A stretch of 22,758 nucleotides of DNA, from the NCBI GenBank assembly GCA_003574845.1, contig NDHY01000002.1, positions 142,317 through 165,074 on the forward strand, read 5' to 3'. Positions 377-22,677 of the stretch are shown here, in pieces. The notes beneath the pieces were generated by a model. It was not told the origin of the DNA, made no database searches, and saw only the letters and a list, made by a program, of their open reading frames with translations. The position numbers and the translations under genes were made by a program. This stretch comes from a candidate division NPL-UPA2 bacterium Unc8 (GTDB lineage: Bacteria > NPL-UPA2). Within the stretch, counting starts at the first letter, position 1; every line of letters begins with the position of its first letter.

Positions 377-423
377 CCGTCTTCAGTCTAACAGCCTACA
401 GCCTTCAGCCTTTGTGCCTTTGT
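377..423. repeat. Degenerate heptamer tract (CAGYCTW-like) running into an octamer (TGTGCCTT)
   Basis: CCGTCTT CAGTCTA A CAGCCTA CAGCCTT CAGCCTT TGTGCCTT TGT fills the panC-panD spacer. Confidence 0.85.
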
Positions 424-426
424 TAT

Positions 427-1275
427 TTACACTTCAATGGAGATATTGTCAATGAGGCGCGTATTACCAATCCAGACAGCAAGAGCAATCAAAATCTTGC
501 CGGAAATCTCTTTCCTCTCTCTCAGTGTTTCTCCATCAACAAGGGAAATATAATCTATTTTTACCCGCGGCTCTTTCCTGACTATCTCCTCCATTATTTT
601 AAGAATCTGTTTACTATTTCTTTCTCCGGAATTAATCAAATGACGCGCTTTTAGAAGAGATTTATAAAGAACCACTGCCGATTTTCTCTCTTCTTTAGTT
701 AGGTAGCTATTTCTTGAGCTCACCGCAAGACCATCAGCAGTCCGCACGGTGGGGAGAACCTTTATCTCTACTTCCATATTAAGGTCAGCAACCATTCTCT
801 TGACAATCAGTGCCTGCTGGGCATCCTTGGCTCCAAAGTAGGCAATATCAGGGCTGATAATATTGAACAGCTTTGCGACAATTGTCGCTACCCCGCGAAA
901 ATGCCCCGGACGTGAGATGCCACACAAAGGAAAACTCAGCTTCTCCACATTGATAGAGGTCTGATATCCATCGGGGTACACCTCACCAGTTAGCGGAGCA
1001 AAGATAAAGTCCACCCCGGCATTGAAGGCGAGGAGGCAATCTTTATCTATATCTCGTGGATATCTTTTGTAGTCCTCCCCTTCAGGGGCAAACTGAGTAG
1101 GATTGACAAAAATACTGATGACAACAGCATCGCAGTCCTTTTTTACCTGGCGAATAAGACTGAGATGCCCCTCATGCAAGCACCCCATCGTCGGAACAAA
1201 GCCAATTGCACATCCCCTCTCTTTTAAGGCGCGAGAGCAGGCAGAGATCCGAGAAATCCTCCTAATAACCTCCAT
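427..1275 (-). CDS. panC: Pantoate-beta-alanine ligase
   Basis: GFVPTMGCLHEGH, SIFVNPTQF, SRPGHFRGVAT, FGAKDAQQ, GLAVSSRN and RLIDN motifs. Confidence 0.98.
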   Translation of the reverse strand: MEVIRRISRISACSRALKERGCAIGFVPTMGCLHEGHLSLIRQVKKDCDAVVISIFVNPTQFAPEGEDYKRYPRDIDKDCLLAFNAGVDFIFAPLTGEVYPDGYQTSINVEKLSFPLCGISRPGHFRGVATIVAKLFNIISPDIAYFGAKDAQQALIVKRMVADLNMEVEIKVLPTVRTADGLAVSSRNSYLTKEERKSAVVLYKSLLKARHLINSGERNSKQILKIMEEIVRKEPRVKIDYISLVDGETLRERKEISGKILIALAVWIGNTRLIDNISIEV

Positions 1276-1697
1276 CTCTCCAACCGCAGAAAAGTATTTA
1301 TCATCTGATGTTGAGCATAACCTACATCTTCAGTGAGAATTGTCCCTGTAGGAATGTGCCAGTATTGCGGACGGCCATCTTCTCCCATCCCTTTATAAAG
1401 GAGATTGGAGCCATACCCGGCTATCCCACTACCATCCAATCTGATTACAGATTTTACAGGAGGAGTAAAACTAACTTCAGGGTTCCGTTTGATAGCAACC
1501 CGATAATGCTTTAGCTTTTCCTGGAAGTGCTGCGCTTTATCAGACGAGATTCTCTCCCACATGATTCTTCCATCAAAAGTAATAACCTCAGCAAACGCCT
1601 CTTCACTGAACTCCTTTATCCTGAGAATCTCTATCGTTTCAAGCTCATCACTCGCGGGAAGCAACAAGCGATTAGTAGTGTTAACTTTACTTTTCAT
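1224..1697 (-). CDS. Hypothetical protein (157 aa)
   Basis: Fills the gap between the DUF151 gene and panC on the operon strand; no motif recognised; no clear SD; 3' end overlaps panC by 52 nt. Confidence 0.5.
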   Translation of the reverse strand: MKSKVNTTNRLLLPASDELETIEILRIKEFSEEAFAEVITFDGRIMWERISSDKAQHFQEKLKHYRVAIKRNPEVSFTPPVKSVIRLDGSGIAGYGSNLLYKGMGEDGRPQYWHIPTGTILTEDVGYAQHQMINTFLRLERWRLLGGFLGSLPALAP

Positions 1698-1709
1698 TTG
1701 CTTGTTTCA

Positions 1710-2120
1710 CTATGGACTGGCAGTAGTTAAGTCAATCACTTCTTCAGCAACAAAAATAGGAACGTTAGCGCGCAGGGCAAGGGCAATAGCATCGCTTGGC
1801 CGGGCATCAATTTTCACTTCTTCCCCTTCTTGTGTGACAATCATTAACTTGGCAAAAAATATTCCTTCGGAGAGACTGTCAACGATTATACCTTCAAGTT
1901 TTGCTCCGAGTCCCTTTATTGTGCTCATTAATAGGTCGTGTGTAAGAGGACGTGGTGGAGTTATTCCTTTCATCTTCATCCTGATTGCTTCAGCCTCATA
2001 AGGCCCGATTATTATCGGAAGGCGCCGCTTTTCTCCATCCTTTTCCTTTAGAATGATAAGTTGCTCGCCCCTTTTCTCATCCATTCTGATGCTTGACAAT
2101 TGCATTTCCATCATTAGCAA
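1710..2120 (-). CDS. Bifunctional nuclease family protein (DUF151)
   Basis: LPIIIGPYEAEAI, PPRPLTHDL and IDARPSDAIALALR motifs; GGAGGAG SD upstream; start is TTG 2120 or ATG 2114. Confidence 0.93.
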   Translation of the reverse strand: MLMMEMQLSSIRMDEKRGEQLIILKEKDGEKRRLPIIIGPYEAEAIRMKMKGITPPRPLTHDLLMSTIKGLGAKLEGIIVDSLSEGIFFAKLMIVTQEGEEVKIDARPSDAIALALRANVPIFVAEEVIDLTTASP

Positions 2121-2170
2121 GCTCCTCCAGATTCCACATCAACTCACCAGCACCAAGCTCACCCTCAGCC

Positions 2171-2200
2171 CTACCTACCACCTACTATCTACTACCCACT
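2171..2200. repeat. Degenerate heptamer tract (CTACCTA-like x4)
   Basis: CTACCTA CCACCTA CTATCTA CTACCCA abuts the hicA stop codon. Confidence 0.8.
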
Positions 2201-2421
2201 CATTTTGCATTTAAAAATTCCTCCATAGTTAGACCAGCTCGGGCAATAAGCGATCTTAGAGTCCCTCTTGCAACCTCACGATGACCAGGAACAGACAAAG
2301 TAGTAATATGTCCTTCCTTCACAAGAATAATGTGACTTCCTCATTGCCTCGCAACTTCCCATCCCAGACGCCTAAATATTCTTACAACTTCATGCCCACT
2401 TAAAAGTGGAATCTTCTGCAT
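2200..2421 (-). pseudogene. hicA: HicA-family mRNA interferase toxin interrupted by an in-frame TGA at codon 27
   Basis: Manual translation: MQKIPLLSGHEVVRIFRRLGWEVARQ*GSHIILVKEGHITTLSVPGHREVARGTLRSLIARAGLTMEEFLNAK. HicA GSH, VPxH and GTLxSI motifs present; TGA at 2341-2343; TAATG coupling with hicB. Absent from the ORF track. Confidence 0.9.
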
Positions 2422-2627
2422 TAGGCCAATACTTCTACTTCACGCATACTTACAGTGAGTGGTATACCCCTTTCAGCTCGAACTTCAAGACACTGTTTTA
2501 TTGCGTCTTTGATATTTTCCACTGCTTCCTGTTCAGTCTTGCCTTGGCTCACACATCCTGGGATAGATGGGCATTCTACCACAAACATTCCGTCTTCATC
2601 TCGTCCAATTGTTACAATAAACTTCAT
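2421..2627 (-). CDS. hicB: HicB-family antitoxin, short form with no DNA-binding domain
   Basis: 68 aa; DEDGMFVVECPSIPGCVSQGKTEQEAVENIKDAI is the HicB partial RNase H fold signature. Confidence 0.92.
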   Translation of the reverse strand: MKFIVTIGRDEDGMFVVECPSIPGCVSQGKTEQEAVENIKDAIKQCLEVRAERGIPLTVSMREVEVLA

Positions 2628-2745
2628 TGTTTATGTCTCATTCTTTTCTTACTTACTTAATAGGGTTCTTAAAGTCTTTTGCATCTCTCTCGGGTTTTTA
2701 TCGCCTAACAATGCATTACTGCTTATGATACAATAGGAATAATCA

Positions 2746-3204
2746 TTATTGCAAGCATTTTTGGGAAATTTCCTGAATCTTTTTCCCCAAAATAGGGTGA
2801 ATGACCTCAGGAGCAATCTCCTTAAGAGGCGCCAGGACAAAGTTCCTCTCTGTGAGTAATGGATGGGGAATTTTTAGATTATCATTATCAATGATTAACC
2901 CGCCATAGAGTAATATGTCAAGGTCAATGATGCGCGGCCCCCAGCGCTTGGCGACTTCTCTACCCAATGTTTTCTCTATGGATTTCAAGAGCTTAAGTAA
3001 TAAAGAGGGAGGAATATCGGTCTCTATTTCCACAACTCCATTTAAGAAAAATGGTTGTTCCTTTATCCCTTCCGGTTCAGTTTCAATGAACGAGGAGATT
3101 TTTTTTACTCTGATGGAGGGATTTTTCATTAAAAGGGCAATTGCCCTTTTAATGCTTTTCCTCCTTCCTCTCAGGTTTGAGCCCAATCCAAGGTAAACTT
3201 TCAA
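2746..3204 (-). CDS. folK: 2-amino-4-hydroxy-6-hydroxymethyldihydropteridine diphosphokinase
   Basis: YLGLGSN, FLNGVV, RWGPRIIDLDILLY, IPHP and RNFVLAPL motifs; TTG start. Confidence 0.97.
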   Translation of the reverse strand: MKVYLGLGSNLRGRRKSIKRAIALLMKNPSIRVKKISSFIETEPEGIKEQPFFLNGVVEIETDIPPSLLLKLLKSIEKTLGREVAKRWGPRIIDLDILLYGGLIIDNDNLKIPHPLLTERNFVLAPLKEIAPEVIHPILGKKIQEISQKCLQ

Positions 3205-3223
3205 TGTAAGGCACCTTTGCTTT

Positions 3224-4405
3224 TCAGTGATAGGTAAGTTTTAGGTGAGAAATTCTTCCCACCGCCTCTTCTATTCTCTCACGCGGAACCGTCAAGGCAA
3301 TGCGAATAAACCCCTCACCGCAGGCGCCAAATCCAACTCCTGGAGTGGTAACAATGTGTGCTTCCCGCAGGAGATATTCTGTTAGTTCAAATGATGAAGT
3401 AAAAGAGGAGGGAAGAGGCAACCACACATAAAGTGTAGCTTTTGGACGTGGCACTTTCCAGCCAATTTTAGTTAATCCATCAATAAGGGCATCTCTCCTT
3501 TCCATATAAATTTTGGCAACTCGGCTTACTTCTTCATCTGAGTTGTTTAGAGCCTCTATGGCTGCATATTGAATCGGCTGAAACATTCCGGAATCAAGAT
3601 TGGTCTTTACCTTTAACAAAGCGGAAATAATTTGAGGATTTCCACATGCCCAGGCAACCCTCCAGCCTGTCATATTATATGTTTTGGAAAGACTATGAAA
3701 TTCAACACCAACATCCATTGCTCCTCCAACCTCAAGAAAGCTCGGCGCCTGGTAATCCCCGAAAGTAACTTCTGAATAGGCAGCATCATGACAGACAACA
3801 ATCTCATATTTTTTTGCAAAGCGGACGACTTCTTTGAAAAATTCCTTTGATGCAGTTGCCGTGGTAGGATTATTAGGATAATTGATAAACATTATCTTTG
3901 CCCGGCGGGCAATGTCTTCACTCACAGAGTTCAGTTGTGGAAGAAACTCATTATCCTTATAAAGCGGTAAAAAAGATGGCTTTCCACCGGCAAGAATCGT
4001 CCCGGCCTGGTAAACAGGATAGCCCGGATCAGGCACAAGAGCGACATCCCCTTCATTTACAAAAGCAAGTGGAATATGACCAATTCCTTCTTTTGAGCCA
4101 AGCAGTGGCAATATCTCGTTTTCGGGGTTCAGCTTGACGGAAAATCTTCCCTCAAACCAGCGCGCCACTGTTTCCCTTAAAATGCGAAGACCACTGTAAG
4201 AAGGATAGCGGTGGTTTTCTTCAATCTTTGCAGATGTATAAAGTTGCTCAATAACGCGCGGGGCAGTAGGAGTATCCGGATCCCCGGTCCCCAAATCAAT
4301 GATATCGGCTCCTGAGGCAAGAACATCTTTTTTTAGCTCATCTATTTTAGCAAAAAGATAGGTAGGAAGCTGAGCCAACCTCCGGGATACTGCTACTTCA
4401 GGCAT
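3224..4405 (-). CDS. dapL: LL-diaminopimelate aminotransferase (class I/II PLP enzyme)
   Basis: YLFAKID, LGTGDPD, LLGSKEGIGH, NYPNNPT, CHDAAYSE and EFHSLSKTYNMTGWR motifs. Confidence 0.88.
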   Translation of the reverse strand: MPEVAVSRRLAQLPTYLFAKIDELKKDVLASGADIIDLGTGDPDTPTAPRVIEQLYTSAKIEENHRYPSYSGLRILRETVARWFEGRFSVKLNPENEILPLLGSKEGIGHIPLAFVNEGDVALVPDPGYPVYQAGTILAGGKPSFLPLYKDNEFLPQLNSVSEDIARRAKIMFINYPNNPTTATASKEFFKEVVRFAKKYEIVVCHDAAYSEVTFGDYQAPSFLEVGGAMDVGVEFHSLSKTYNMTGWRVAWACGNPQIISALLKVKTNLDSGMFQPIQYAAIEALNNSDEEVSRVAKIYMERRDALIDGLTKIGWKVPRPKATLYVWLPLPSSFTSSFELTEYLLREAHIVTTPGVGFGACGEGFIRIALTVPRERIEEAVGRISHLKLTYH

Positions 4406-5592
4406 TTTTTTCTCATTGCCTCAAGTTTAAGCGGCAAGCCCCAGAGTTCAATAAACCCTTCTGCCCAGGTACGGTTAAAGGTATCACTTATCCCATATGT
4501 AGCCAGATTCTCATTATAAAGTGAATACTCTGACCGGCGACCAATCATCTCGCATTTTCCTTTGTGCAGCTTTACCCTTATGGTGCCGCTGACCACCTCC
4601 TGTGTCTTTTCAATAAAGGCATCAAAGGCATCCCGCAAGGAGGAGTGCCATAAGCCATAGTAGATGAGCTCTCCGTACTTAGTAGAAATTAACTCCTTAA
4701 AATGAAGTGTCTCCTTATCCAGAGTCAGCGCTTCTAATTCTCGATGGGCCAGATGAAGAATTGTGCCAGCTGGGGACTCATATATCTCTCTTGACTTGAT
4801 GCCGATGAGGCGGTTCTCTATCAAGTCCTCCCTCCCAACGCCATTTTTTCCGCCCTCTTCATTCAGTTTTCTCACAATTTCCATCATTCCACAGCTTCTA
4901 CCGTTAAGACCAACAGGAGTGCCTCGCTTGAAATTGAGCTCTATGTAGGTTGGCTTATCCGGAGCCGACTGAGGAGATGCTGTAAGCTGATATATTTCCT
5001 CAGGAGGCTCGCGCCATGGGTCCTCAAGAACGCCGCATTCTATACTTGCCCCCCAGACATTGATATCAACACTATAGGGGCTCTCCACGCTAACAGCAAC
5101 AGGGATGTTGTGCTTAGCAGCATAAGCAATCTCCTCCTGGCGAGATTTGAGCTCCCATTCACGCAATGGAGCAATTACCCTTAGCTCCGGGTTGAGTGAG
5201 AAAATCCCGAGTTCAATCCGCACCTGGTCATTTCCTTTGCCAGAGCACCCATGCGCAACGACCGATGCTCCCTCTTTCTCGGCAATCTCAACAAGTTTTT
5301 TGGCAATTAATGGACGGCTAAGCGCCGTTGCCAGCAGATATTTTCGCTCATAGGCAGCATTCGCGCGCAGGGCAGGGAGCACATACTGCTCTAAAAATTC
5401 CTGCTGGAGATTTTCAATATATACAGAGGTAGCGCCGCTGGCGAGTGCTTTCTGCCTCAGCGCATCTGCGTCAAACTCCTGCCCAAGGTCTAAAGATACG
5501 GTAACCACCTCCATCTGCTTTTTTTCCTTTAGCCAGGGGATGCAGACAGAAGTATCCAGTCCACCTGAATAGGCAAGGACAACCTTTTTCAA
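4393..5592 (-). CDS. argG: Argininosuccinate synthase
   Basis: LAYSGGLDTS, AHGCSGKGNDQVR, SIECGVLEDPW and ENRLIGIKSREIYE motifs. Confidence 0.98.
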   Translation of the reverse strand: MKKVVLAYSGGLDTSVCIPWLKEKKQMEVVTVSLDLGQEFDADALRQKALASGATSVYIENLQQEFLEQYVLPALRANAAYERKYLLATALSRPLIAKKLVEIAEKEGASVVAHGCSGKGNDQVRIELGIFSLNPELRVIAPLREWELKSRQEEIAYAAKHNIPVAVSVESPYSVDINVWGASIECGVLEDPWREPPEEIYQLTASPQSAPDKPTYIELNFKRGTPVGLNGRSCGMMEIVRKLNEEGGKNGVGREDLIENRLIGIKSREIYESPAGTILHLAHRELEALTLDKETLHFKELISTKYGELIYYGLWHSSLRDAFDAFIEKTQEVVSGTIRVKLHKGKCEMIGRRSEYSLYNENLATYGISDTFNRTWAEGFIELWGLPLKLEAMRKKCLK

Positions 5593-5650
5593 TCTATATA
5601 CCTCATCTTATAACTATTCATATATCCAGTAGTTAGAAGTTGATTGTTTT

Positions 5651-5692
5651 ATTCTGGATTCTGGATTCTGGATTCTGACTTCTGACTCCTGA
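5651..5692. repeat. Heptamer tandem tract (ATTCTGG x3, ATTCTGA, CTTCTGA, CTCCTGA)
   Basis: Six 7-nt units between ferredoxin and argG. Confidence 0.92.
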
Positions 5693-5699
5693 GTAGTCA

Positions 5700-5888
5700 C
5701 TATTCTTCTATGCTTATTGCTTCCGTTGGGCAGCCCTCAGTAGCCTCACGACAGGAATCAACAGCTTCTTCAGGAACTGTATCTGCCTTCACCAGAGCAA
5801 CATCATTACTCATTTCAAACACCTCAGGACAGATATCCACGCACATTTCACAACCAGTGCAGAGATCATTATCAATTATTACTTTCAT
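5700..5888 (-). CDS. Single-cluster [4Fe-4S] ferredoxin
   Basis: 62 aa, acidic; CTGCEMCVDICPEVF...CPTEAI. Confidence 0.95.
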   Translation of the reverse strand: MKVIIDNDLCTGCEMCVDICPEVFEMSNDVALVKADTVPEEAVDSCREATEGCPTEAISIEE

Positions 5889-5905
5889 AGATCAAACACC
5901 CCCTC

Positions 5906-6130
5906 TTAAGTAATTACCTCTTTCGCTTCTGGCACCTCTGCCTTTATTGCACGCTCTACTGACATTTTCAATGTCATCTGGGACATTGGACAATTGCCAC
6001 AGGCACCGGTTAATTTTACCTTGACCACACCATCCTCGGTCACATCCAGCAGGTCTATGCCCCCTCCATCTGCCTGTAACAAAGGACGCACTTTGTTTAG
6101 AGATATCTCCACTTTTTCCTTTAACTCCAT
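5906..6130 (-). CDS. NifU C-terminal (Nfu) Fe-S carrier/scaffold protein
   Basis: VRPLLQADGG and LTGACGNCPMSQMTLK (CxxC); strong AGGAGG SD. Confidence 0.95.
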   Translation of the reverse strand: MELKEKVEISLNKVRPLLQADGGGIDLLDVTEDGVVKVKLTGACGNCPMSQMTLKMSVERAIKAEVPEAKEVIT

Positions 6131-6178
6131 TGTCTTTCCTCCTTCCTAATACCCTGCCTCCTCTATAATGAGGAGAAG

Positions 6179-7189
6179 CTACGACAGCTCAAAAGGCAAC
6201 TTCTTGCCACAATAGCAATAGCTTTTTTCCTTCAGGTCAATCTTTCTTACACCGAACCAGCTCCTTGCTATTATGGTCTTTCCACAATAAGGACATACAG
6301 AATCTTCGCAACTATTTTGTGGTAGGTTACCAGAATAAACATAATTCAGTCCAGTTTTTTTTCCAACTTCAATCGCGCGATGAATCACTTCAGCAGGCGT
6401 GGACCGGGCATCCTGCATCTGATGACAGGGGGAAAATGCCGAGAGATGCCATGGAATATCGGCAGAGATGCTTACTAAGAATTCAGCAATCCCTTTTAAT
6501 TCATCAGGAGAGTCGTTCTCTCCCGGCACTACCAACGTAGTAACCTCAATTGTTATTCCTGCATTGTGCATATTTCTGATGGTCTCCAGCACTGGCTCGA
6601 GGTGCGCCTGGCAGACCCTGCTGTAAAAGTCATCTGAGAAAGATTTCAGGTCTATGTTCGCTGCATCTATCACACCTTTCATCATAGCTACTGTCTCCGG
6701 AGTCTGGTAGCCATTGGTAACAAAGACATTTCTCAATCCTTTCTCCCGGGCAATCTCAGCCGTTTCATAGGCATATTCAAAGAAAACAGTCGGCTCAGTG
6801 TATGTGTAAGAGATACTCTGGCACTTATAGAAAATCGCTTCTTCAACTATTTTCTCTGGCAAGATAGTCTCTCCGGGAATGTTATCTTTCACTCCCTGAG
6901 ATATTTCCCAATTCTGGCAAAAGCGACAGCGAAAATTACAGCCTACAGTAGCCAGTGAATAGCTAAGCGTTCCCGGAAGAAAATGAAAGAGCGGTTTCTT
7001 CTCCATAGGGTCAACATTTCTGGCGATGGCTTTGCCATAAACTAAAGTATAAAGAGCCCCCTCTTTGTTTTCTCTTACCCTGCAGATGCCGGTTGCTCCG
7101 GGCTTAATGCGGCAGCGATGAGCACAGAGGCGACATTTCACCATATTATCCCCAAGAGTCTGATAAAGAAAAGCCTCTTTCCTGCCCAA
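6179..7189 (-). CDS. AmmeMemoRadiSam system radical SAM enzyme
   Basis: CRLCAHRC, GICRVREN, DPMEKKPLFHF, GCNFRCRFCQNWEISQ (CxxxCxxC), YTYTEPTVF and NIDLKSF. Start moved to TTG 7189 after a G-rich SD because the longer ORF overlaps the upstream small gene. Confidence 0.92.
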   Translation of the reverse strand: MGRKEAFLYQTLGDNMVKCRLCAHRCRIKPGATGICRVRENKEGALYTLVYGKAIARNVDPMEKKPLFHFLPGTLSYSLATVGCNFRCRFCQNWEISQGVKDNIPGETILPEKIVEEAIFYKCQSISYTYTEPTVFFEYAYETAEIAREKGLRNVFVTNGYQTPETVAMMKGVIDAANIDLKSFSDDFYSRVCQAHLEPVLETIRNMHNAGITIEVTTLVVPGENDSPDELKGIAEFLVSISADIPWHLSAFSPCHQMQDARSTPAEVIHRAIEVGKKTGLNYVYSGNLPQNSCEDSVCPYCGKTIIARSWFGVRKIDLKEKSYCYCGKKLPFELS

Positions 7190-7211
7190 AACATTCCCCC
7201 CTATGCGAAAG

Positions 7212-7376
7212 TTATTCTTCAGTAATTTCATCCATCCGTTTAAGGATTCCTTCAACTTTTTCTCTGGTTTTTGCCTTTTCCTCTTCCCAGGCAGCTTTCT
7301 CTTTCTTGAGCCTGGCTAAGGCATCCAGCATTTTCTGAATCCGCTCCTCAAGAATTAAAAGGCTTTTCTCATCCAT
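7212..7376 (-). CDS. Small coiled-coil protein, ZapB-like (54 aa)
   Basis: Manual translation MDEKSLLILEERIQKMLDALARLKKEKAAWEEEKAKTREKVEGILKRMDEITEE; fills the cysE-radical SAM gap; AAGGAG lies upstream inside the cysE 3' end; below the ORF-track cutoff. Confidence 0.75.
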   Translation of the reverse strand: MDEKSLLILEERIQKMLDALARLKKEKAAWEEEKAKTREKVEGILKRMDEITEE

Positions 7377-7380
7377 CCAG

Positions 7381-8046
7381 CTATTTTTCTCCTTCTTTCC
7401 ACCGCGCGAGCTCCTTTTCTACTTCATCAATGTGCCGCTGGAGCTTTTCCAATCTTTCAGTAAGCGGGTCAGGAAGGCTGGTAATCCTTCCTGGAATACC
7501 AACGACTGTGGAGTTTTGAGGAACAGATTTGATAATAACGGCGTTAGCACCGATATTAACATTATCACTAATTATAATATTCCCGAGAACCTTTGCCCCT
7601 GCCCCCACGACGACATTATTGCCTAATGTAGGGTGGCGCTTTTCCCTTTTTTTTCCTGTTCCTCCCAGGGTTACCCCCTGAAACAGTGTCACATTCTCTC
7701 CGATCTCAGCTGTCTCGCCAATGACAACTCCCATCCCATGGTCAATGAAGAGCCCTCTTCCTATCTTTGCTGCCGGGTGAATCTCAATTCCGGTCGCCTG
7801 CCGCGCAATCCGGGATACCAATTGAGGCAAAAATGGAACCCTCCAGAGAAGAAGCCTATGGCTAATACGATGAAGGACAATTGCCTGAAGCCCCGGATAA
7901 GTAAGTAGGATACTCATATAACTTACAGCCGCCGGGTCGCGCTGGAAGCAGGCATCAATCTCAACCTTAAAAAGTACGCTAATTAGCAAAGTCTTGACCA
8001 GAAAGATTGCCAACAAGCCTAAAATTATATAGACCAATACTATCAT
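7381..8046 (-). CDS. cysE: Serine O-acetyltransferase with N-terminal hydrophobic extension
   Basis: RDPAA, YPGLQA, TGIEIHPAAKIG, FIDHGMGVVIGET, QGVTLGGTG and RHPTLG motifs. Start placed at ATG 8046 because the track's 8085 start lies inside the predicted promoter. Confidence 0.93.
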   Translation of the reverse strand: MIVLVYIILGLLAIFLVKTLLISVLFKVEIDACFQRDPAAVSYMSILLTYPGLQAIVLHRISHRLLLWRVPFLPQLVSRIARQATGIEIHPAAKIGRGLFIDHGMGVVIGETAEIGENVTLFQGVTLGGTGKKREKRHPTLGNNVVVGAGAKVLGNIIISDNVNIGANAVIIKSVPQNSTVVGIPGRITSLPDPLTERLEKLQRHIDEVEKELARWKEGEK

Positions 8047-8069
8047 TCCTACCCCCACTTTTTTGGCTG

Positions 8070-8098
8070 ATTTTACCAGTTTCACTATCCCCTGTCAA
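8070..8098 (-). promoter_or_regulatory. sigma70 promoter of the cysE...panD run
   Basis: Minus strand TTGACA (8098-8093) N17 TAAAAT (8075-8070). Confidence 0.75.
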
Positions 8099-8126
8099 CA
8101 TTTTCACTTACTCATTTTCACTTACT
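8099..8126. repeat. Perfect 14-bp direct repeat (CATTTTCACTTACT x2)
   Basis: Lies between the divergent cysE and exoD-like promoters. Confidence 0.85.
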
Positions 8127-8156
8127 CCCCTCACTGCATTCGTGCTACAATGTAAT

Positions 8157-8837: not shown

Positions 8838-8880
8838 AAATCTAATTCAGAAACTGTAGCAACAAGCAGGCGAACCTCAG

Positions 8881-9897
8881 ATGGAAACAAAAAAGTTTGA
8901 TTATTCACTCCCGAAAGAGCTAATCGCCCAAACGCCACTTGAGCCCAGAGATTCTTCCAGGTTGTTAGTGCTTGAGAGAAAAAAGAGAAGGATAGGAAAC
9001 GATGCCTTCAGGAATGTTATAAATTATTTAAGCCCCGGCGATGTTCTGGTGCTGAATGACACCAGAGTTATTCCTGCCCGGCTTCCGGCTCGCAGAGTCA
9101 GCGGAGGAAAAGCAGAGATATTCCTGTTGAAGAAATTAAGAGGAGCCAGATGGGAGGCTTTGGTGAAGCCCGGGGCTAAATTGCCTCCAGGTGCGGAAGT
9201 CATCATCAGAGAAGGCATAAATGTTAAAATATTAGAAGAATCAGATGATGGGCACAGAATCATAGAATTTCTTCCCCCCGGCACAGGAGAACTTGCCTTG
9301 AAAGAGTTCGGACAAATTCCCCTTCCGCCATACATAAAGAAGCCCATTTCCGACCCGGATAGATATCAGACAATATATGCCGAAAAAAATGGTTCGGTAG
9401 CCGCTCCTACCGCAGCGCTGCATTTTACATCAACATTGCTGAAGCAAATAGAAGACAAGGGTATAGTAATTCTCTACCTGACTCTCCACATGGGATTGGG
9501 GAGCTTTCAGCCCATCAGGGAAGAAACCGTGGAAGACCACAAGATGCCACCTGAATACTATTGTATCCCGGAAATAACAGCCAAAAGAGTAAATCAGGCT
9601 AAAAAAAGCGGAAAGAAAATAATCCCCTGCGGCACGGACGTGGTAAGAGCACTGGAAGCATCAACAAAAAACGAAAGACTTCAGAGCGGCTGTGGCAATA
9701 CCTCTCTTTTCATCACCAATAATTATAAGTTTAAAATTGTTGATACCTTAATCACCAACCTTCATCTCCCCCGCTCTTCCCATTTAGTTTTAGTATCTGC
9801 TTTTGCCGGTAGAGATTTTGTCTTAAAGGCTTATCAGTATGCAGTAAATAAGAAATTTAGATTTTATACCTTTGGCGACGCCACAATAGTAATATGA
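8881..9897 (+). CDS. queA: S-adenosylmethionine:tRNA ribosyltransferase-isomerase
   Basis: FDYSLPKELIAQTP, RDSSRLL, NDTRVIPARL, PLPPYI, RYQTIYA, GSVAAPTA and FRFYTFGDA motifs. Confidence 0.97.
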   Translation: METKKFDYSLPKELIAQTPLEPRDSSRLLVLERKKRRIGNDAFRNVINYLSPGDVLVLNDTRVIPARLPARRVSGGKAEIFLLKKLRGARWEALVKPGAKLPPGAEVIIREGINVKILEESDDGHRIIEFLPPGTGELALKEFGQIPLPPYIKKPISDPDRYQTIYAEKNGSVAAPTAALHFTSTLLKQIEDKGIVILYLTLHMGLGSFQPIREETVEDHKMPPEYYCIPEITAKRVNQAKKSGKKIIPCGTDVVRALEASTKNERLQSGCGNTSLFITNNYKFKIVDTLITNLHLPRSSHLVLVSAFAGRDFVLKAYQYAVNKKFRFYTFGDATIVI

Positions 9898-9901
9898 AAA
9901 G

Positions 9902-10004
9902 AAGGGGTTCTGGTAAGCGCAGAGCCGATTATGACGCAGGCCACAGGCCGAGTAATAAGAAAGGCCAAGCGAACCAGAATCCCTTGCGAAAAATAGAGTT
10001 GACC
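9902..10004 (+). repeat. 103-bp structured interspersed repeat, copy 1
   Basis: 95/103 identical to 16402-16504; 13-bp terminal stem AAGGGGTTCTGGT/ACCAGAATCCCTT. Confidence 0.95.
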
Positions 10005-10021
10005 AGATAACTCTATTTATG

Positions 10022-10049
10022 TTAGATATTAGATGTTAGAGATTAGACC
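10022..10049. repeat. Heptamer tract (TTAGANN x4)
   Basis: TTAGATA TTAGATG TTAGAGA TTAGACC upstream of tmk. Confidence 0.8.
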
Positions 10050-10068
10050 TAATACCCAGGAAAAGGTT

Positions 10069-10707
10069 ATGAGAGAAAATGGAGTATTGATTACCCTTGA
10101 GGGTACAGAAGGAAGCGGAAAGTCAACTCAGGTAAAACACCTTTCCCATTACTTAGCGGACAAAGGACTTTCAACGCTAACAACCCTGGAGCCAGGTGGT
10201 ACCCCTCTTGGGATGAAATTGAGGAGGATTCTTCTCGCCTCAAAGGCAGATGAAATAGCCCCGCTGCCAGAGCTTTTTCTCTACCTGGCTGAGCGGGCTC
10301 AACATGTGTGCGAGGTGATAATACCTGCACTTTCCGAAGGAAAAATTGTTATCTCAGACCGATTCCTTGACGCTACCGTAGCCTATCAGGGGTATGGACG
10401 CAATCTTGACCTAACCTTAATTGAGAAGCTGAATGAATTAGCCTCTCAGGGAATTAAGCCTGATTTGACTATCTTGCTTGATATAGAAATTTTATCTGGA
10501 ATGAAGCGAGCAAAAAGAGGTATGAAAGGAGACAGATTAGAGGAAGAAGGAGATTTTTTTCATAATCAGGTGCGGGAAGGATACCTGAAGATTGCTGCAT
10601 TTGAACCTGAGCGGGTAAAGGTTGTTAATGCCAGTGACTCTATGGATAATATCCGGGCTGCCATAAGAAAACATGTGGATAAACTACTTATAGGCAGGTT
10701 CTACTAA
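10069..10707 (+). CDS. tmk: Thymidylate kinase
   Basis: ITLEGTEGSGKSTQ, EPGGT, ISDRFLDATVAYQGYGR and PDLTILLD motifs. ATG 10069 preferred because ATG 10033 lies in the heptamer tract. Confidence 0.96.
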   Translation: MRENGVLITLEGTEGSGKSTQVKHLSHYLADKGLSTLTTLEPGGTPLGMKLRRILLASKADEIAPLPELFLYLAERAQHVCEVIIPALSEGKIVISDRFLDATVAYQGYGRNLDLTLIEKLNELASQGIKPDLTILLDIEILSGMKRAKRGMKGDRLEEEGDFFHNQVREGYLKIAAFEPERVKVVNASDSMDNIRAAIRKHVDKLLIGRFY

Positions 10708-10713
10708 AAAGCG

Positions 10714-11736
10714 ATGCCATTTACCGATATTATTGGCCAGAAACAAGTCATAAGGATGTTGAGAAACTCCCTGAGACAGGCAAGGCTTCCTCATGCTCTG
10801 CTCTTTGCCGGACCAGAAGGAGTTGACAGACACCTCACCGCTAAGATATTGGCGCAGGCAATCAATTGCGAGAGAGAGCATACCGACGCCTGTGGAGATT
10901 GCCCATCCTGCTTAAGGATTGAGCGCCATAGTTATCCTGATGTTTCCTGGCTTGAGCCCTCAGGTGCCTCCCGCCAGATAGGAATAGATAGTATTCGCCA
11001 GCTTCGCCACAACATATCACTGAAGTCAGCAGGAAAAGGAAAAGTGTATATAATCTCTGAAGCTGACCGCATGACCACCGATGCCAGTAATGCGCTCTTA
11101 AAAACGCTTGAGGAGCCGCCGGAAAATTCAGTTCTTATTCTCATTACCTCCTCCCCTGAGCATCTCTTTCCCACGGTGACTTCCAGGTGTCAGATGATGA
11201 AATTTTTCCCATTGCGTGGAAAAAAGGTAGAGGAGAAAGTCTGCAAAGAAGAAAGAGCTAAAATGCTGGGCATCTTAGATATGGCATCATTCGGGGCTAC
11301 TTCAGGGAAAGCTATTGAGATGGCAGCCCGTGTAATGGAAATAACAGATTGTTTTAAAAAAGAGATGGAGGGGAAAGCAGCTAAGGAAGTAAGTGACTTA
11401 ACCGAGGTGCTTGGTGCAACGGCGGTAAAGGAAATTAAAAAGAAATTAACCGCCGATATTTCAGGGAAGGTTCGGGCAAAACTTCTGAGAATGTTAGATA
11501 TTGTCCTCTCCTGGTATCGGGACATTTTTGTCTTGAAAGCAGGCGGAGAGGAGTTTCTTATCAATCCTGACCGAAGGCGTGAACTTGAGCGAGCAGGGAA
11601 ATCTTTTTCAACCTCCTCTCTCATAAGGATTATGGAAGAGATAGAGAAGACAAAGGAAGTTATAGACCGTAATGTCAGCCCCAGGCTGGCGATTGAAGTG
11701 ATGATGATAAGGATAATAGAGGAACTTAAGCAATGA
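10714..11736 (+). CDS. holB: DNA polymerase III subunit delta'
   Basis: FTDIIGQ, HALLFAGPEG, zinc module C...CGDCPSC, NALLKTLEEPP and TVTSRC; tmk-holB-yaaT synteny. Confidence 0.93.
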   Translation: MPFTDIIGQKQVIRMLRNSLRQARLPHALLFAGPEGVDRHLTAKILAQAINCEREHTDACGDCPSCLRIERHSYPDVSWLEPSGASRQIGIDSIRQLRHNISLKSAGKGKVYIISEADRMTTDASNALLKTLEEPPENSVLILITSSPEHLFPTVTSRCQMMKFFPLRGKKVEEKVCKEERAKMLGILDMASFGATSGKAIEMAARVMEITDCFKKEMEGKAAKEVSDLTEVLGATAVKEIKKKLTADISGKVRAKLLRMLDIVLSWYRDIFVLKAGGEEFLINPDRRRELERAGKSFSTSSLIRIMEEIEKTKEVIDRNVSPRLAIEVMMIRIIEELKQ

Positions 11737-12539
11737 CTATGGCGATAAAAGTTGAGACGGAAGAGGGGATAATCCTTTGCCTTAAATCAGAATGGCTTAA
11801 ACTTAGTCCTGGTGATGAGATAATTATTATAGGGGAAAGAGGAGAAGAAGTCGGGAAGGTCCTTCCTTACCCCGAGATGCCAATCACCACACAGTTTAGG
11901 CAAAGAAAGGTTTTAAAAGAAATAAAGAGGAAGATGACAGAGAATGACAGAGAGAGAAGAGAAGAAAACTTAAAAAGAGAAAATGAGATATTTGAAACAT
12001 GTTTAAAGAAAATAAAGGAAGAAAATATCCTGATAAAACTTATCACTGCCGACTGCTCATTTGATGGAAAGATAGTAACGCTTTATTTTACCGCCAAGGA
12101 AAGAATGGATTTCCGTGATTTAGTAAGAGACATTGCTTCTTTCTTTAATGTTAAGGTGGAGATGCGGCAGATCAGCGTCAGAGAGGAGGCGAAACGAATT
12201 AGCGGTTGCGGCAGTTGCGGCAGGCCTTTCTGTTGCACTACATTCATCAAAGAATTTGAGCCAACCACAATTACAATGGCGAAGGAGCAGGGGCTCTCTC
12301 TTGACCCGGATAGGGTTTCTGGTCCCTGTGGAAGAATTTTATGCTGCATAGGATACGAATATCAGACATACGAGGAAATGAGCAAGAAGTTGCCGCCGAA
12401 GGGGTCCAGAGTAACAATGGGAAAGGTAAGCGGAAAGGTTGTTGGTATTAATCCGCTCCGGCAAACGGTAACCCTTGACCTTGGAGATGGGCAAAAAACT
12501 GACGTTCCAATAACTAATCTTGAGGTGAAGTTAGATTAG
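11733..12539 (+). CDS. PSP1-domain protein (YaaT/RicT family)
   Basis: YFTAKERMDFRDLVRD, EMRQI, GCGSCGRPFCC, MAKEQGL and SGPCGRILCCIGYE motifs. Confidence 0.94.
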   Translation: MTMAIKVETEEGIILCLKSEWLKLSPGDEIIIIGERGEEVGKVLPYPEMPITTQFRQRKVLKEIKRKMTENDRERREENLKRENEIFETCLKKIKEENILIKLITADCSFDGKIVTLYFTAKERMDFRDLVRDIASFFNVKVEMRQISVREEAKRISGCGSCGRPFCCTTFIKEFEPTTITMAKEQGLSLDPDRVSGPCGRILCCIGYEYQTYEEMSKKLPPKGSRVTMGKVSGKVVGINPLRQTVTLDLGDGQKTDVPITNLEVKLD

Positions 12540-12927
12540 GATATGTTGCCCTTACAGTGATACTAATCCCCCCACGTGGACGAAATTCCCCGCTTACTTC
12601 TGCTCTGCGCGGCGAGGATGCTTTAATAACGGCATCAAGGATTTTATTTACAGCGTCTTCGTTAAAAATCCCGACACTACGAAAAGAAAAAAGGTAAAGC
12701 TTAAGAGACTTTGCCTCAAGACATTTCTTATCAGGGATGTATCTTATCGTTATTGTGCCGAAGTCCGGTTGGGCTGTCTCAGGACAGATAGAGGTGAACT
12801 CAGGGCAGTGAAACGTTATCCAGTAATCCCGCTTTGAATACTTATTTACAAATGTCTCCAGAGACGCTTCATCCGGTGAAGAAGGATACCCTCTTATTTT
12901 TTTGCCTAAAAAAGTCAGCTTATTCAT
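12514..12927 (-). CDS. queF: PreQ0 reductase, type 1 short form
   Basis: PEFTSICPETAQPDFG, EAKSLKLYLFSFR and FRPRGGI motifs. Confidence 0.96.
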   Translation of the reverse strand: MNKLTFLGKKIRGYPSSPDEASLETFVNKYSKRDYWITFHCPEFTSICPETAQPDFGTITIRYIPDKKCLEAKSLKLYLFSFRSVGIFNEDAVNKILDAVIKASSPRRAEVSGEFRPRGGISITVRATYPNLTSPQD

Positions 12928-12932
12928 ACTAA

Positions 12933-13057
12933 CAGTCTTCAGTTCACAGTTTACAGTTTACAGTTTACCTGTCTGCGTGCAACCGCACAGGCAGGCAGTT
13001 CTGACTTCTGACTTCCAATCACCATTCACCAATCACCATTCACTATTCACTATTTAC
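12933..13057. repeat. Composite repeat block: three heptamer tracts with an embedded 28-bp palindrome
   Basis: CAGTYYW x5 (12933-12967), palindrome CCTGTCTGCGTGCAACCGCACAGGCAGG (12968-12995), TTCTGAC x2 plus TTCCAAT, and CACYAWT x5 (13020-13054). Confidence 0.92.
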
Positions 13058-13732
13058 CAGGGGGTCAGAAATTCCCGCTTCCCTGAATCCCTTGCGGCGC
13101 AGACTGCAGCTATCACAACAACCGCAGACGCCTCCATCCGCACGAGGGTCGTAACAGCTCCAGGTAAGAGAATAATCAACTCCAAGAGACAGTCCCTTTT
13201 TGATGATCTCTCCACGGGAAAGATTAATAAGTGGAGAGTGAATTCTAATTTTTTCCTTCCCCACTCCCATTTTTGTTCCAAGATTTGCAGTTTTTTCAAA
13301 TGATTCAATAAACTCCGGTCGGCAATCTGGATAGCCGCTGTAATCAACAGCACTCACCCCGATGAAAATTTCACCTGTTCCAAGTGCTTCTGCCCATGCC
13401 ACGGCACAGGAGAGAAAAATGACGTTGCGGGCAGGGACATAAGTTAACGGAATCTCTTCTTTCATCTCCTGCGGAGAGCGGTTATGAGGAATTGCCAGCT
13501 CTTTATCCGTTAGTGAGGAGCCGCCAATTGTCTCCAGACCAAGTCTTAGCACTTTGTGCTCTTTAACACCTATCTGGTGGGAAATTTTCTCTGCCGCTGT
13601 TATTTCGCGCAGATGTCTTTGCCCGTAATTAAAGGTCATCGCATAAAGCTCAAACCCTTCACTCTTAGCTATGGCAAGGGTAGTCGCTGAATCAAGCCCT
13701 CCACTTAAAAGAATAACTGCTTTCTTACTCAT
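13043..13732 (-). CDS. queC: 7-cyano-7-deazaguanine synthase
   Basis: LLSGGLDS, FNYGQRH, TYVPARN, DYSGYPDCRPEF, TWSCY and CGCCDSCSLR motifs. Confidence 0.98.
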   Translation of the reverse strand: MSKKAVILLSGGLDSATTLAIAKSEGFELYAMTFNYGQRHLREITAAEKISHQIGVKEHKVLRLGLETIGGSSLTDKELAIPHNRSPQEMKEEIPLTYVPARNVIFLSCAVAWAEALGTGEIFIGVSAVDYSGYPDCRPEFIESFEKTANLGTKMGVGKEKIRIHSPLINLSRGEIIKKGLSLGVDYSLTWSCYDPRADGGVCGCCDSCSLRRKGFREAGISDPLVNSE

Positions 13733-13832
13733 CGTATTATAATTTTTACCACACTTTTTTGATTATACTACAAATAGGTAGTAATGCAAAAAAGATTTCC
13801 TGTTTTTATTAACGCAATGTATAATAGTTATT

Positions 13833-15677
13833 ATGAAACACGGATTAAAAAAAGAGCTTACATTATTAGATATCTTCTGCGCGACGGCGGGCGCAATGAT
13901 AAGTTCAGGGCTATTTATCCTGCCAGGATTAGCTTTTGCTCAAGCAGGCCCAGCAATTATTCTGTCATATATAATAGCGGGAATTCTTTGTCTCCCTGCC
14001 CTTTTAAGTACGGCGGAATTAATTACCGCTATGCCTAAAGCTGGAGGAAACTATTTTTACATTATGAGAGGCTTTGGGCCTCTTTTAGGAACGGTAGTCG
14101 GTTTTTCTGCATGGCTTTCTTCGAGCCTAAAGGGGGCATTTGCTCTAATCGGTATGGGTGCCTACTTAATCTTGCTCACTGATTTGTCATTGGAAGTCAT
14201 TGCTCTCATTTGCTGTATATTTTTTATTATCCTGAATTTAATCGGCATAAAAGAAGCGGGAAGATTTCAGGTATTTTTAGTCTTAGGGTTTCTGAGTACA
14301 CTTTTGGTCTATATCGTTTGGGGGACAAAAACAGTTAATCCTGAAAATTTCTCGCCTTTTTTTGCTAAAGGATTAGATTCTGTGTTTACCATGACAAGTT
14401 TTGTTTTTATCTCTTACGGAGGTTTGATCGAAGTGACCACCTTAGCTGAGGAGACAAAAAATCCAGGAAGAGATTTTCCCTTAGGTATGATTCTTTCTCT
14501 TATTGTAGTCTCTATTGTGTATGCTTTAGTTATTTTTGTAACCATAGGGGTTTTGAATCCGGAAAACCTGGGAGTGTCCCTTACTCCTATATCTGATGGA
14601 GCAGGAGTTTTTGGGGGCAATACTTTGAAAATAATAATAGGCGTAGGTGCATTCTTAGCCTTTATTTCTACTGCTAATTCAGGGATTATGACTGCCTCAA
14701 GATACCCTTTAGCAATGAGCCGGGATAAACTTTTACCTCCAGGTTTTCAAAAAATAAGTTCTAAGTTTAAGACCCCATATACTGCTATTCTTTTTACCGG
14801 CTTCTTTATGATTACGGCTATTTTATTTTTGAGGCTTGAATTATTAGTAAAAGTTGCCTCAGGTGTATTGATTTTACTCTATATCTTTGCCAATCTGACT
14901 CTTATTTTATTTAGAGAAAGTAAGATCTCAAGTTATCAACCAAAATTCCATTCTCCTTTCTATCCTTATCTCCAGGTCTTAGGGATATCAGGAGGGCTTT
15001 TTCTGTTGATGGGAATGGGAATGCTTATTATTTTCTTAACTACAGTTTTTCTTCTGTTAGGATTTATCTGGTATAAAGCCTATGCACAAAAAAGAGCGAG
15101 TCAGGATTCAGCTCTTATATATGTTTTAGAAAGACTGGTAGCCAGAGATAAAGAGCTAACCTCGGATAATCTTCTTACCGAATTAAAGGACATCGTTATT
15201 GAAAGAGACGAAGTTATAAGGGATAAATTCCATAAACTTATTGAAGAAAGTAAAGTTTTAGATATAGAGGAGCCCCTTAAAATGGAGGATTTCTTTAAAG
15301 AGGTCTCAGATATTTTGGGAAAAGACCTGAACTTAGAGCCCAGGGAGCTACTAAAGAAATTTATGAAGAGAGAAGAAGAATCCAGTACAGTAATCCGTAA
15401 GGGGTTAGCCATTCCTCATATTGTTGTTGATGGCAGGAATGTCTTTAAAGTTCTTCTGGCAAGAGCAAAAACAGGCATTATTTTACCCGGTGATAAATTA
15501 GTGCATATTATATTTGTTATTGTAGGCTCCCACGATGAGCGCAACCTGCACCTGAAGGTTTTAGCTTCCATGGCCCAGATTGCCCAATGCCCTGAATTTG
15601 ATGAGAAGTGGTCCAGGGCAAGGAGCGCAGAAGAACTAAGAAACATTATTCTTCTAACTGAAAGAAGAAAAGACTAA
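13833..15677 (+). CDS. APC-family amino acid permease fused to a C-terminal PTS EIIA (fructose/nitrogen-type) domain
   Basis: GAMISSGLFILPG, AELITAMPKAGG, LAEETKNPGR and ASRYPLAMSRD with many TM segments; C-terminal KREEESSTVIRKGLAIPH...HLKVLA. Confidence 0.9.
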   Translation: MKHGLKKELTLLDIFCATAGAMISSGLFILPGLAFAQAGPAIILSYIIAGILCLPALLSTAELITAMPKAGGNYFYIMRGFGPLLGTVVGFSAWLSSSLKGAFALIGMGAYLILLTDLSLEVIALICCIFFIILNLIGIKEAGRFQVFLVLGFLSTLLVYIVWGTKTVNPENFSPFFAKGLDSVFTMTSFVFISYGGLIEVTTLAEETKNPGRDFPLGMILSLIVVSIVYALVIFVTIGVLNPENLGVSLTPISDGAGVFGGNTLKIIIGVGAFLAFISTANSGIMTASRYPLAMSRDKLLPPGFQKISSKFKTPYTAILFTGFFMITAILFLRLELLVKVASGVLILLYIFANLTLILFRESKISSYQPKFHSPFYPYLQVLGISGGLFLLMGMGMLIIFLTTVFLLLGFIWYKAYAQKRASQDSALIYVLERLVARDKELTSDNLLTELKDIVIERDEVIRDKFHKLIEESKVLDIEEPLKMEDFFKEVSDILGKDLNLEPRELLKKFMKREEESSTVIRKGLAIPHIVVDGRNVFKVLLARAKTGIILPGDKLVHIIFVIVGSHDERNLHLKVLASMAQIAQCPEFDEKWSRARSAEELRNIILLTERRKD

Positions 15678-16315
15678 AGTTGAGCCGTTTCAGTCGGACT
15701 ATTGGAATTTTGTGGATTGGGTTGGCTAATTTCAAAATCGCTGGCATTGTCATTAGTATCCCAGCCATTACCCTGACCACGAATAACTCCCCGGTCATTA
15801 CTCTTACGTTCCAGGCTTTTGCCTTTAGGGGCGTCCATGGCCGGCTTTCCTTCACCTGCCCCGGACGGACCATCTTTATGCATGCCATATTGCAAGCCGT
15901 CAATAATATCGCCGTTAGCATCCTTTAGTACAATGCCATCGCCGGGTCCGTTTTGCCAGTCTACTTTTGTCAATCTAATCAGGTCAGGGATTACTTCCTC
16001 ACCGCCCCAGTCAGCAGAATTTAACGGACTTTTCTCTCCAATCAGAAAGTATCCACCTGGAGCTATTGAGGTATCCTCCGGAATAGTTACCGTACTTTGC
16101 AATTTTCCTGTCTGATTATAATGCGTTAACTTCCATCCTGAAATGTCCACCGCGGCTTTAGTGGGATTATAAAGTTCTACAAATTCATTATTATCGCCTC
16201 CATCTTCATCATAGAAAAACTCACTAATCACCACATAATCGGCCACACTTGCCTCTACCACACTCGCCAGACCGACCATCATTACAATCAAAAACCCCGC
16301 TAACAACTTGAGCAT
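15674..16315 (-). CDS. Secreted lamin-tail-domain (LTD) protein
   Basis: Signal peptide, then VVISEFFYD, EFVELYNPT, VDISGWKL, IAPGGYFLI, SLERK, DTNDNASDF and PNPQN motifs; GGAG SD. Confidence 0.88.
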   Translation of the reverse strand: MLKLLAGFLIVMMVGLASVVEASVADYVVISEFFYDEDGGDNNEFVELYNPTKAAVDISGWKLTHYNQTGKLQSTVTIPEDTSIAPGGYFLIGEKSPLNSADWGGEEVIPDLIRLTKVDWQNGPGDGIVLKDANGDIIDGLQYGMHKDGPSGAGEGKPAMDAPKGKSLERKSNDRGVIRGQGNGWDTNDNASDFEISQPNPQNSNSPTETAQL

Positions 16316-16334
16316 CTCCTCTCCCTCTTCTTAA

Positions 16335-16390
16335 CAGTCCACAGTCGACAGTCTAACAGCCTACACCTTCAGCTTTTAGCCTACAGCCTA
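16335..16390. repeat. Heptamer tract (CAGTCNA / CAGCCTA-like)
   Basis: CAGTCCA CAGTCGA CAGTCTA A CAGCCTA CACCTT CAGCTTT TAGCCTA CAGCCTA; shares 17 nt (CAGTCTAACAGCCTACA) with 384-400. Confidence 0.88.
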
Positions 16391-16401
16391 TCTATTGAAG
16401 T

Positions 16402-16504: not shown

Positions 16505-16538
16505 CCCGATCCCTTGCTTTGTGCCTTTGTGCCTTTGA

Positions 16539-22633: not shown

Positions 22634-22677
22634 AAAAAAATCCTTTCTGCTCTATCTCTTTATTAGAACCAGAAAGG

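Follow-up and report, generated by a model that had tools for sequence, protein, structure and literature searches.

Background

The described systems closest to the repeats treated here are the intervening sequences (IVS) of 23S rRNA that carry an open reading frame (ORF; S23p/PF05635/TIGR02436), and the heptamer repeats found between genes of several bacteria. A described IVS has complementary ends, is cleaved by RNase III and carries tandem heptamers, located in the 5′ arm, before the S23p ORF, with strains varying in unit number and through internal deletion of the ORF (PMC4990558). An excess of heptamers in bacterial intergenic DNA has long been reported without an origin (PMC4692102, PMC4679880). 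In Xanthomonas and Nostoc the intergenic heptamer repeats are oriented as well as inverted, and their origin was left open; those of Xanthomonas lie on the coding strand just after stop codons and on the other strand before start codons, often as inverted pairs, and slippage was proposed for the period of 7 (PMC4692102). The oriented TAACTGA repeats of Beggiatoaceae were described without a mechanism, and the word 'intervening' is absent from the available text (PMC4679880). Explanations offered in these two papers, as far as their available portions go, are G-quadruplexes (G4), regulation or slippage, and not cassette arms. Here we describe a window of 22,758 nt from the candidate division NPL-UPA2 bacterium Unc8 (GCA_003574845.1, contig NDHY01000002.1, positions 142,317–165,074; genome G000, 996 kb, 94.7% complete), in which degenerate 7-nt tandem tracts occupy six gene spacers. 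A sequence-only reading of this window had proposed that the tracts mark a system that inserts and removes small gene cassettes. A cassette-arm origin of the tracts is well supported, and we consider it rather probable that the tracts of G000 are the decayed, nested and reshuffled arms of IVS-like hairpin gene cassettes.

Cyanobacterial repeats of this kind go by the name of STRR. The cassettes considered here are also comparable to those of integrons, in which small promoterless genes, toxin-antitoxin pairs among them, come and go along the direction of transcription. Unlike integron cassettes, the G000 tracts are dispersed over many junctions, there is no array behind an integrase, and no attC-type site was seen, although no search aimed at such sites was made. 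With the ORF-bearing 23S rRNA IVS, the cassettes of relatives share complementary arms around a four-helix-bundle ORF and heptamers in the 5′ arm, and they differ in being located at mRNA junctions; all six window tracts lie between protein genes and none in 23S rRNA, with only tRNA above threshold in an Rfam scan of the window. Also unlike these IVS, the window arms are mostly unpaired, and G000 lacks the ORF as well as a detectable RNase III. The G000 tracts resemble the repeats of Xanthomonas, Nostoc and Beggiatoaceae, and STRR-like repeats in general, in their period of 7, intergenic and dispersed location, orientation relative to genes and genome-wide excess; the published genomes are described, in the portions available, for one dominant unit, whereas G000 has about 20 families with periods of 7 and 8. 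Intergenic heptamers and their polarity are already published, and no link to mRNA cassettes was found in the literature searched, which covered few subscription papers, so an earlier description of cassettes with heptamers at mRNA junctions is possible.

Repeat families of the window form cassette arms in relatives

PF05635 is a large family that resembles Avd and is not known to have a function. According to the sequence-only reading, similar tracts flank four-helix-bundle genes, and this held for two families of the window, which form the arms of PF05635 genes or of gene-less hairpins in relatives. The families at the panC/panD junction are arms around PF05635 genes at five loci (L018, L199, L203, L207 and L253), with the PF05635 ORF located between the arms at L018, L203 and L253; at L018, in a genome of the same phylum (G008), the gene is intact. 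The GTCAGAA/ATCCAGA family is the 5′ arm of a further PF05635 gene (L008). Inverted flanks were present at 52 of 63 distinct full-length PF05635 genes (a non-independent set, as a single family of genomes contributes many of them) versus 37 of 308 controls, with period 7 found upstream of 38/63 genes and a purine-rich 5′ arm in 40 of the 52.

The 21-nt arm at window positions 384–404 has 86 occurrences, spread over records from many phyla, and 80 of these were fetched with flanks. A complementary arm was located downstream in 41 of the 64 with enough flank (upstream control 1/63), and a PF05635-like ORF was bracketed at 3/80 loci, with one full length and two internally deleted. The octamer of the window, AGGCACAA, brackets a broken PF05635 gene in the same-genus relative G001, and is present as a gene-less hairpin at 10 of 15 loci in four relatives (one of the ten on a short match). 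A decay series was observed, consisting of full gene, internally deleted gene, gene-less hairpin and solo arm. In G000, pairing was 1/25 for the heptamer arm versus 41/64 elsewhere, and 0/24 for the octamer versus 10/15 in relatives, while over all tracts 45/287 were paired in G000 and 70/213 in G001. PF05635 or TIGR02436 genes are present in 12 of 40 other genomes, including G001, G002 and G008, and profile searches of G000 (94.7% complete) with PF05635 and TIGR02436 gave 0 matches.

The families PF13366/TIGR04256, of the GxxExxY type, were considered as partner of the octamer and rejected, since no PF13366 match exceeded the cut-off in G000, no GxxExxY-type gene was present in G001, and the octamer brackets the broken PF05635 gene instead; a single GxxExxY-type gene with octamer arms of another unit was noted in G006 (L089). 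The G000 genes bracketed by matching arms (15/999 with a score of at least 14, versus 3 in controls) were likewise rejected, as they were either Y1- or insertion sequence-type genes that bring repeats of their own, or ordinary host genes that happen to lie between two separate tracts. Genes that have a tract on either side (n = 28) were mostly housekeeping genes. The 999 gene calls came from our own hexamer-based caller, which missed hicA and may have misplaced some starts. When two PF05635 proteins were scanned against viral sequences, one gave 0 matches and the other 1 weak match; these scans were of low sensitivity and uninformative on phage carriage. In G029, many PF05635 matches were partial and paired, with the two members on opposite strands and separated by a few hundred bases.

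Genome-wide distribution, polarity and order of tracts

Within G000 there were 236 period-7 tracts, compared with 0, 1 and 1 in three 200-nt block shuffles of the genome, and 60 period-8 tracts (0, 0 and 0 in the shuffles), with 1–11 tracts each for periods 5, 6, 9, 10 and 11. Intergenic DNA holds 83% of tract bases and represents 9.7% of the G000 genome; the tracts inside genes (n = 25) are uncurated. The G001 sequence (837 kb) contained 146 period-7 and 99 period-8 tracts. The sequence-only reading had placed the tracts at operon junctions, and a preference for operon-internal junctions did not hold genome-wide, as tracts occupied 98/363 co-directional, 17/60 divergent and 16/34 convergent gaps of at least 30 nt.

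Orientation with transcription was confirmed as a property of each repeat family and not of the purine strand. The mRNA polarity was 47:3 for AGGCACA, 22:2 for GCTGA, 20:1 for GAGAGTA, 17:2 for AAATTGG, 12:0 for AACTTTT (10:0 in a separate count) and 15:3 for CTGGTGCT, with AACTTTT being strongly polarised yet pyrimidine-rich on the mRNA; two families were found both ways (GTCAGAA 15:8, TTTAGGG 10:9). Polarity was kept where an operon runs on the strand that is locally in the minority (75:18 versus 175:56), so transcription is a more likely cause than replication. The approximately 20 families of period 7 and 8 are stacked as an ordered mosaic, in which family order was consistent in 158 of 179 pair observations (158:21) and purine arrays lay ahead of pyrimidine arrays by 15:1. 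Families serving as 3′ arms were located late in the spacer (mean position 0.68 for CTGGTGCT and 0.59 for AACTGT), and those serving as 5′ arms early (0.23–0.30), with arm roles read from relatives. A block of at least 40 nt at 90% identity was shared with another locus at 109/168 tract loci, with non-repetitive linkers shared as well, and 58 of 103 co-directional loci start at most 20 nt from the upstream stop codon.

Tracts and features of the window

Tandem Repeats Finder (TRF) recovered every array named in the sequence-only reading, together with the octamers at 408–423 and 16517–16537, and the genes next to the tracts were verified by Pfam (panC/panD, hicA/DUF151, fdx/argG, queA/tmk, queC/queF and prepilin/LTD). 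The features of the six spacers are as follows.

377–423, minus strand: panC/panD mosaic of a AAAGGCAC octamer arm, then an AGGCTG(T/A) heptamer arm, both 5′-type and without partner arm (TRF arrays 392–412 and, for the octamer, 408–423; fold z = +0.94).
2171–2200, minus strand: TAGTAGG-type heptamer array, directly after the hicA stop codon and ahead of the bifunctional-nuclease (DUF151) gene, with related copies at C12:89459 and C1:126221.
2200–2627, minus strand: hicB (PF15919, 68 aa) and hicA (PF07927, in-frame TGA at codon 27), assigned by Pfam, with an array on one side.
5651–5692, minus strand: ferredoxin/argG array of the GTCAGAA/ATCCAGA family, a 5′-type arm with at most a degenerate partner (fold z = -0.18).
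About 10022–10049, plus strand: queA/tmk TTAGATG array (TRF 10022–10047).
12932–13059, minus strand: queC/queF mosaic of a GTGATTG/GTGAATG array, a GTCAGAA array, an inserted hairpin and an AACTGT array (TRF 12932–12968, 12999–13015 and 13015–13059).
15674–16315, minus strand: LTD gene (PF00932), assigned by Pfam.
16334–16390, minus strand: prepilin/LTD array, AGGCTGT family followed by a GGACTGT array.
16517–16537, minus strand: AAAGGCAC octamer arm directly behind the prepilin stop codon.

Motifs reported to recur were indeed present at both sites of each pair, CAGTCTAACAGCCTACA at 384 and 16349, TTCTGAC at 5673 and 12999, and CTTTGTGC at 410 and 16517. The period was said to be constant at 7; period 7 is present at all six sites, but period 8 is also part of the pattern. 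Similarly, the purine-rich strand was said to be the mRNA strand, and the six tracts are 57–73% purine on the mRNA, with the queA/tmk tract on the plus strand, but tract-free gaps are purine-rich too (77:17 versus 193:63, Fisher p = 0.25). The tract thought to flank a toxin-antitoxin cassette is an array downstream of hicAB, but the other side lacks an array and hicA carries the in-frame TGA; additional hicA-like copies were noted on C2 and C1. Folding of the window tracts gave z-scores from +0.94 to -2.55 without a long arm-arm stem, and four of the six folded no better than shuffles. Elsewhere in the window, a perfect 14-nt duplication with two heptamer-like halves is located at 8099–8127, in the divergent cysE/exoD spacer. 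The LTD/prepilin region (15512–17200) showed 2–9x depth and many variants in four runs, and the assembly has one LTD copy; the excess probably represents collapsed paralogues or a variable cassette region beside the tRNA at 17287.

Comparison of orthologous junctions

The comparison with G001 used 851 kb of its approximately 1.4 Mb, with contigs C101–C330 mostly outside. Among 206 orthologous co-directional junctions, tracts were present in both genomes at 12, in G000 only at 6, in G001 only at 48 and in neither at 140, corresponding to an odds ratio (OR) for junction reuse of 5.8 (p = 6e-4), or 4.5 (p = 0.007) after removal of 49 tight gaps. At 11 of the 12 shared junctions there was little tract homology (score at most 10). 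Gene-bearing sites were also found among the tracts of G001. At C1:62417, where G000 has one array, G001 has DUF4258 and DUF2283 genes between direct copies of a 51-nt array (44/51 identical), and at C12:112366 G001 has MNT and HEPN genes among tracts and G000 is clean; both are unpolarised two-genome comparisons. In addition, HEAT-repeat and autotransporter genes are inserted behind tract mosaics at three G001 loci (L323, L328 and L331), and the G000 junctions are short.

Content at the window's own junctions changes between relatives. At panC/panD, G001 differs in content, G002 and G006 carry octamer hairpins, G004 has a short heptamer pair, and the spacer is tight in G011. At queC/queF, G001 shows another mosaic, G002 carries two nested octamer hairpins and G008 a single AGGCACA arm, and the spacer is tight and without tract in G004 and G007. 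The queA/tmk and fdx/argG gene orders were not seen in the relatives examined. The LTD gene, its tracts and its hairpin are absent from the same junction in G001. Three spacers (exoD/queA, dapL/HPPK and queC/permease) hold mosaics in G001 and none in G000. A scan of metagenomes with queF gave four loci, with a cassette at none.

RNase III and population-level variation

Neither PF14622 nor PF00636 matched in G000 (94.7% complete), and PF14622 matched in 10 of 12 relatives of the phylum. The rnc gene of G002 and G004 has fabF on one side and an acyl-CoA dehydrogenase gene on the other; the same two flanking genes overlap by a few bases in G000 (C23:18611–18615), so rnc is gone from that site. 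The only RNase III match in G001 is a stand-alone, divergent 152-aa domain (L421, C329:950–1406) beside MNT/HEPN-like genes, with the ancestral rnc site outside the contigs compared. A dependence of the cassettes on RNase III was considered and is unsupported, because PF14622 was not found in 6/41 genomes and arm-flanked PF05635 genes are present in two of these (G034 and G038, each 94% complete).

Population-level variation was assessed with contigs from four runs, which drop rare variants, with the small-share runs X9–X11 left out. Raised depth and variants at 15512–17200 and near 13000 were disregarded, since they stem from similar sequence elsewhere. In a 99.8% identical contig 5 of 3055 bases differ, three of which fall within the queA/tmk tract or on its border, in a stretch chosen after the differences were known. 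Two long contigs of single-copy depth have gap totals, given without positions, of 14 (X1) and 21 (X4), and it is likely that tract length changes in multiples of the unit.

Hairpin elements and the Y1 gene

The three tracts that were reported to touch a palindrome do so, one with a hairpin within the queC/queF mosaic, one 18 nt behind a 112-nt hairpin upstream of tmk and one with a second such hairpin abutting the LTD tract.

12968–12995, no strand: 28-nt REP-like hairpin inserted in the AACTG array within the queC/queF mosaic.
9893–10004, plus strand: 112-nt hairpin element, copy 1, with a 13-bp terminal stem (z = -6.6), sense in its mRNA.
16393–16504, plus strand: 112-nt hairpin element, copy 2, 89–92% identical to copy 1, antisense to its mRNA.

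Repetitive extragenic palindromes (REP) of the tagged type combine a short stem-loop with an adjoining GTAG or CGTC tag that stays unpaired (PMC3733652). Like REP and bacterial interspersed mosaic elements (BIME), the G000 hairpins are intergenic and spread by family, and the 28-nt hairpin is REP-like in size. They differ in that the G000 arms are tandem arrays and not a single tagged palindrome, and the 28-nt hairpin has array sequence on its flanks and lacks a tag in the contexts viewed. This hairpin has eight related places in G000, four of them in the same array context, and a 42-nt stretch including it is identical at C7:5968. The two copies of the 112-nt element are 6.5 kb apart and are not oriented with transcription, with the stem staying paired across a compensatory T-A to C-G change. 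One 74% match was found, in G002, and no Rfam family matched; a viral scan with the hairpin pattern gave 0 matches and, being of low sensitivity, was uninformative on phage carriage. Both hairpin types look like separate passengers.

A Y1 (PF01797) transposase-like gene is located at 21692–22633 with 32-nt inverted flanks (21680–22732), and resembles TIRtrons in having its own terminal inverted repeats. Pieces of its end sequence adjoin tracts elsewhere, for example at the C10:10517 junction and at C8:4750. G000 has six Y1-transposase-like genes, and in an unsystematic look three had their own inverted flanks, none of heptamer type, and no link between the arms and a Y1 transposase was seen.

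Origin of the tracts

The cassette build in relatives, shared repeat families, fixed polarity, 5′-type before 3′-type arms, decay intermediates and junction reuse are direct observations. In relatives, a cassette has the layout of the ORF-bearing 23S rRNA IVS: one array comes first, a small cargo gene follows (as a rule a four-helix bundle of PF05635) and the complementary array closes it, the whole being co-directional and placed just behind a stop codon. New cassettes may land in or beside older arms and so give nested stacks, with deletion later removing the cargo gene. Recombination or gene conversion between modules shared by many loci, together with slippage, may have turned the stacks of G000 into ordered mosaics of mostly unpaired arms, and recombination between direct array copies could also delete or bring in unrelated genes, toxin-antitoxin pairs for example.

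Several observations weigh against this reading. No ORF was found inside the window's junctions in relatives that keep them (panC/panD in G001, G002, G004, G006 and G011; queC/queF in G001, G002, G004, G007 and G008), and the small ORFs expected within the tracts there were not seen in the relatives examined. Four G001 PF05635 cassettes are at orthologous junctions which in G000 are clean in three cases and hold an array of another family in the fourth; a tract is therefore not an obligatory scar of removal, and as no outgroup was used it is possible that the clean sites never held a cassette. Reuse may also mean that some junctions are permissive, without old arrays being targeted. Cassette-sized joints were not found in the contigs of the four runs, and no cargo-like gene bracketed by matching arms was found in G000. 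The dictionary of arm roles is thin, with 6/19 families lacking a match in the flanks of the 63 PF05635 genes and most others having 1–3. Finally, a PF05635 gene at only 3/80 arm loci means that gene-less hairpins could be primary and the genes later passengers. The proposal that the tracts are landing sites or scars of a cassette-insertion system stands in part: junctions are reused above chance, and PF05635, DUF4258/DUF2283 and MNT/HEPN genes lie among G001 tracts at junctions orthologous to those of G000, but the window junctions lack an ORF, three of the four PF05635 sites are clean, and no adding or removing enzyme was identified.

A possible primacy of gene-less hairpins leads to an alternative that we consider a real but minor possibility, in which arrays and gene-less hairpins are a primary selfish unit, similar to STRR or REP, spread by slippage, gene conversion or a host-encoded HUH nuclease, with four-helix or toxin-antitoxin genes settling within them only now and then. 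Gene-less hairpins far outnumber gene-bearing ones (41/64 paired, 3/80 with a gene), blocks are copied inside G000 (109/168 loci), and this genome combines about 300 tracts and six Y1-transposase-like genes with the lack of a PF05635 gene. However, most PF05635 genes sit within such arms (52/63), each with its own unit, the internally deleted genes between intact arms at L199, L207 and L253 fit decay from a gene-bearing form, and the inverted repeats of the window's Y1 gene are unrelated to the arrays.

Selection for post-transcriptional elements, such as protein-binding or processing signals at cistron boundaries, was proposed for the TAACTGA repeats of Beggiatoaceae, and would agree with the fixed polarity per family, the start of 58/103 co-directional loci within 20 nt past the upstream stop codon, the tendency of the same junctions to be occupied in G000 and G001, and the similar placement in the available portions of PMC4679880 and PMC4692102. 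It is nevertheless improbable, with 54 of 66 occupied orthologous junctions occupied in one congener only and the shared ones mostly holding another family, with four of six window tracts folding no better than shuffles, and with convergent gaps occupied at least as often. Plain slippage microsatellites, arising independently at each site, are very improbable and already contradicted: the gap totals of 14 (X1) and 21 (X4) suggest length changes in unit multiples, and slippage was proposed in the available part of PMC4692102, but local slippage alone could not yield one 21-nt arm with a complementary partner in many phyla, nor the polarity of the families, the fixed order of the modules and the non-repetitive linkers that loci have in common.

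Implications

Returning to the cassette-arm reading, the window itself holds remnants, without a cargo gene and with no active machinery shown, and the result for the window alone is modest. In its widest form, the period-7 and period-8 intergenic repeats of bacteria would be arms of widespread IVS-like selfish cassettes, which enter mRNA junctions, nest and need RNA-level processing of the arm stem, and G000 would be an end state after loss of rnc and of the four-helix cassettes, with unpaired arms acting as an ordered, recombining library able to capture or drop other small genes located between direct copies of an array. We regard this wider form as speculative and unlikely to hold as a whole, and the causal link between loss of cassettes and loss of RNase III comes from one genome and has two counter-examples (G034 and G038). 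With the same families forming cassette arms in relatives, and with filled and empty orthologous junctions, the puzzle of the heptamer repeats and that of PF05635 function become one testable question: what moves the cassettes, and whether the arm stem is cut from the mRNA.

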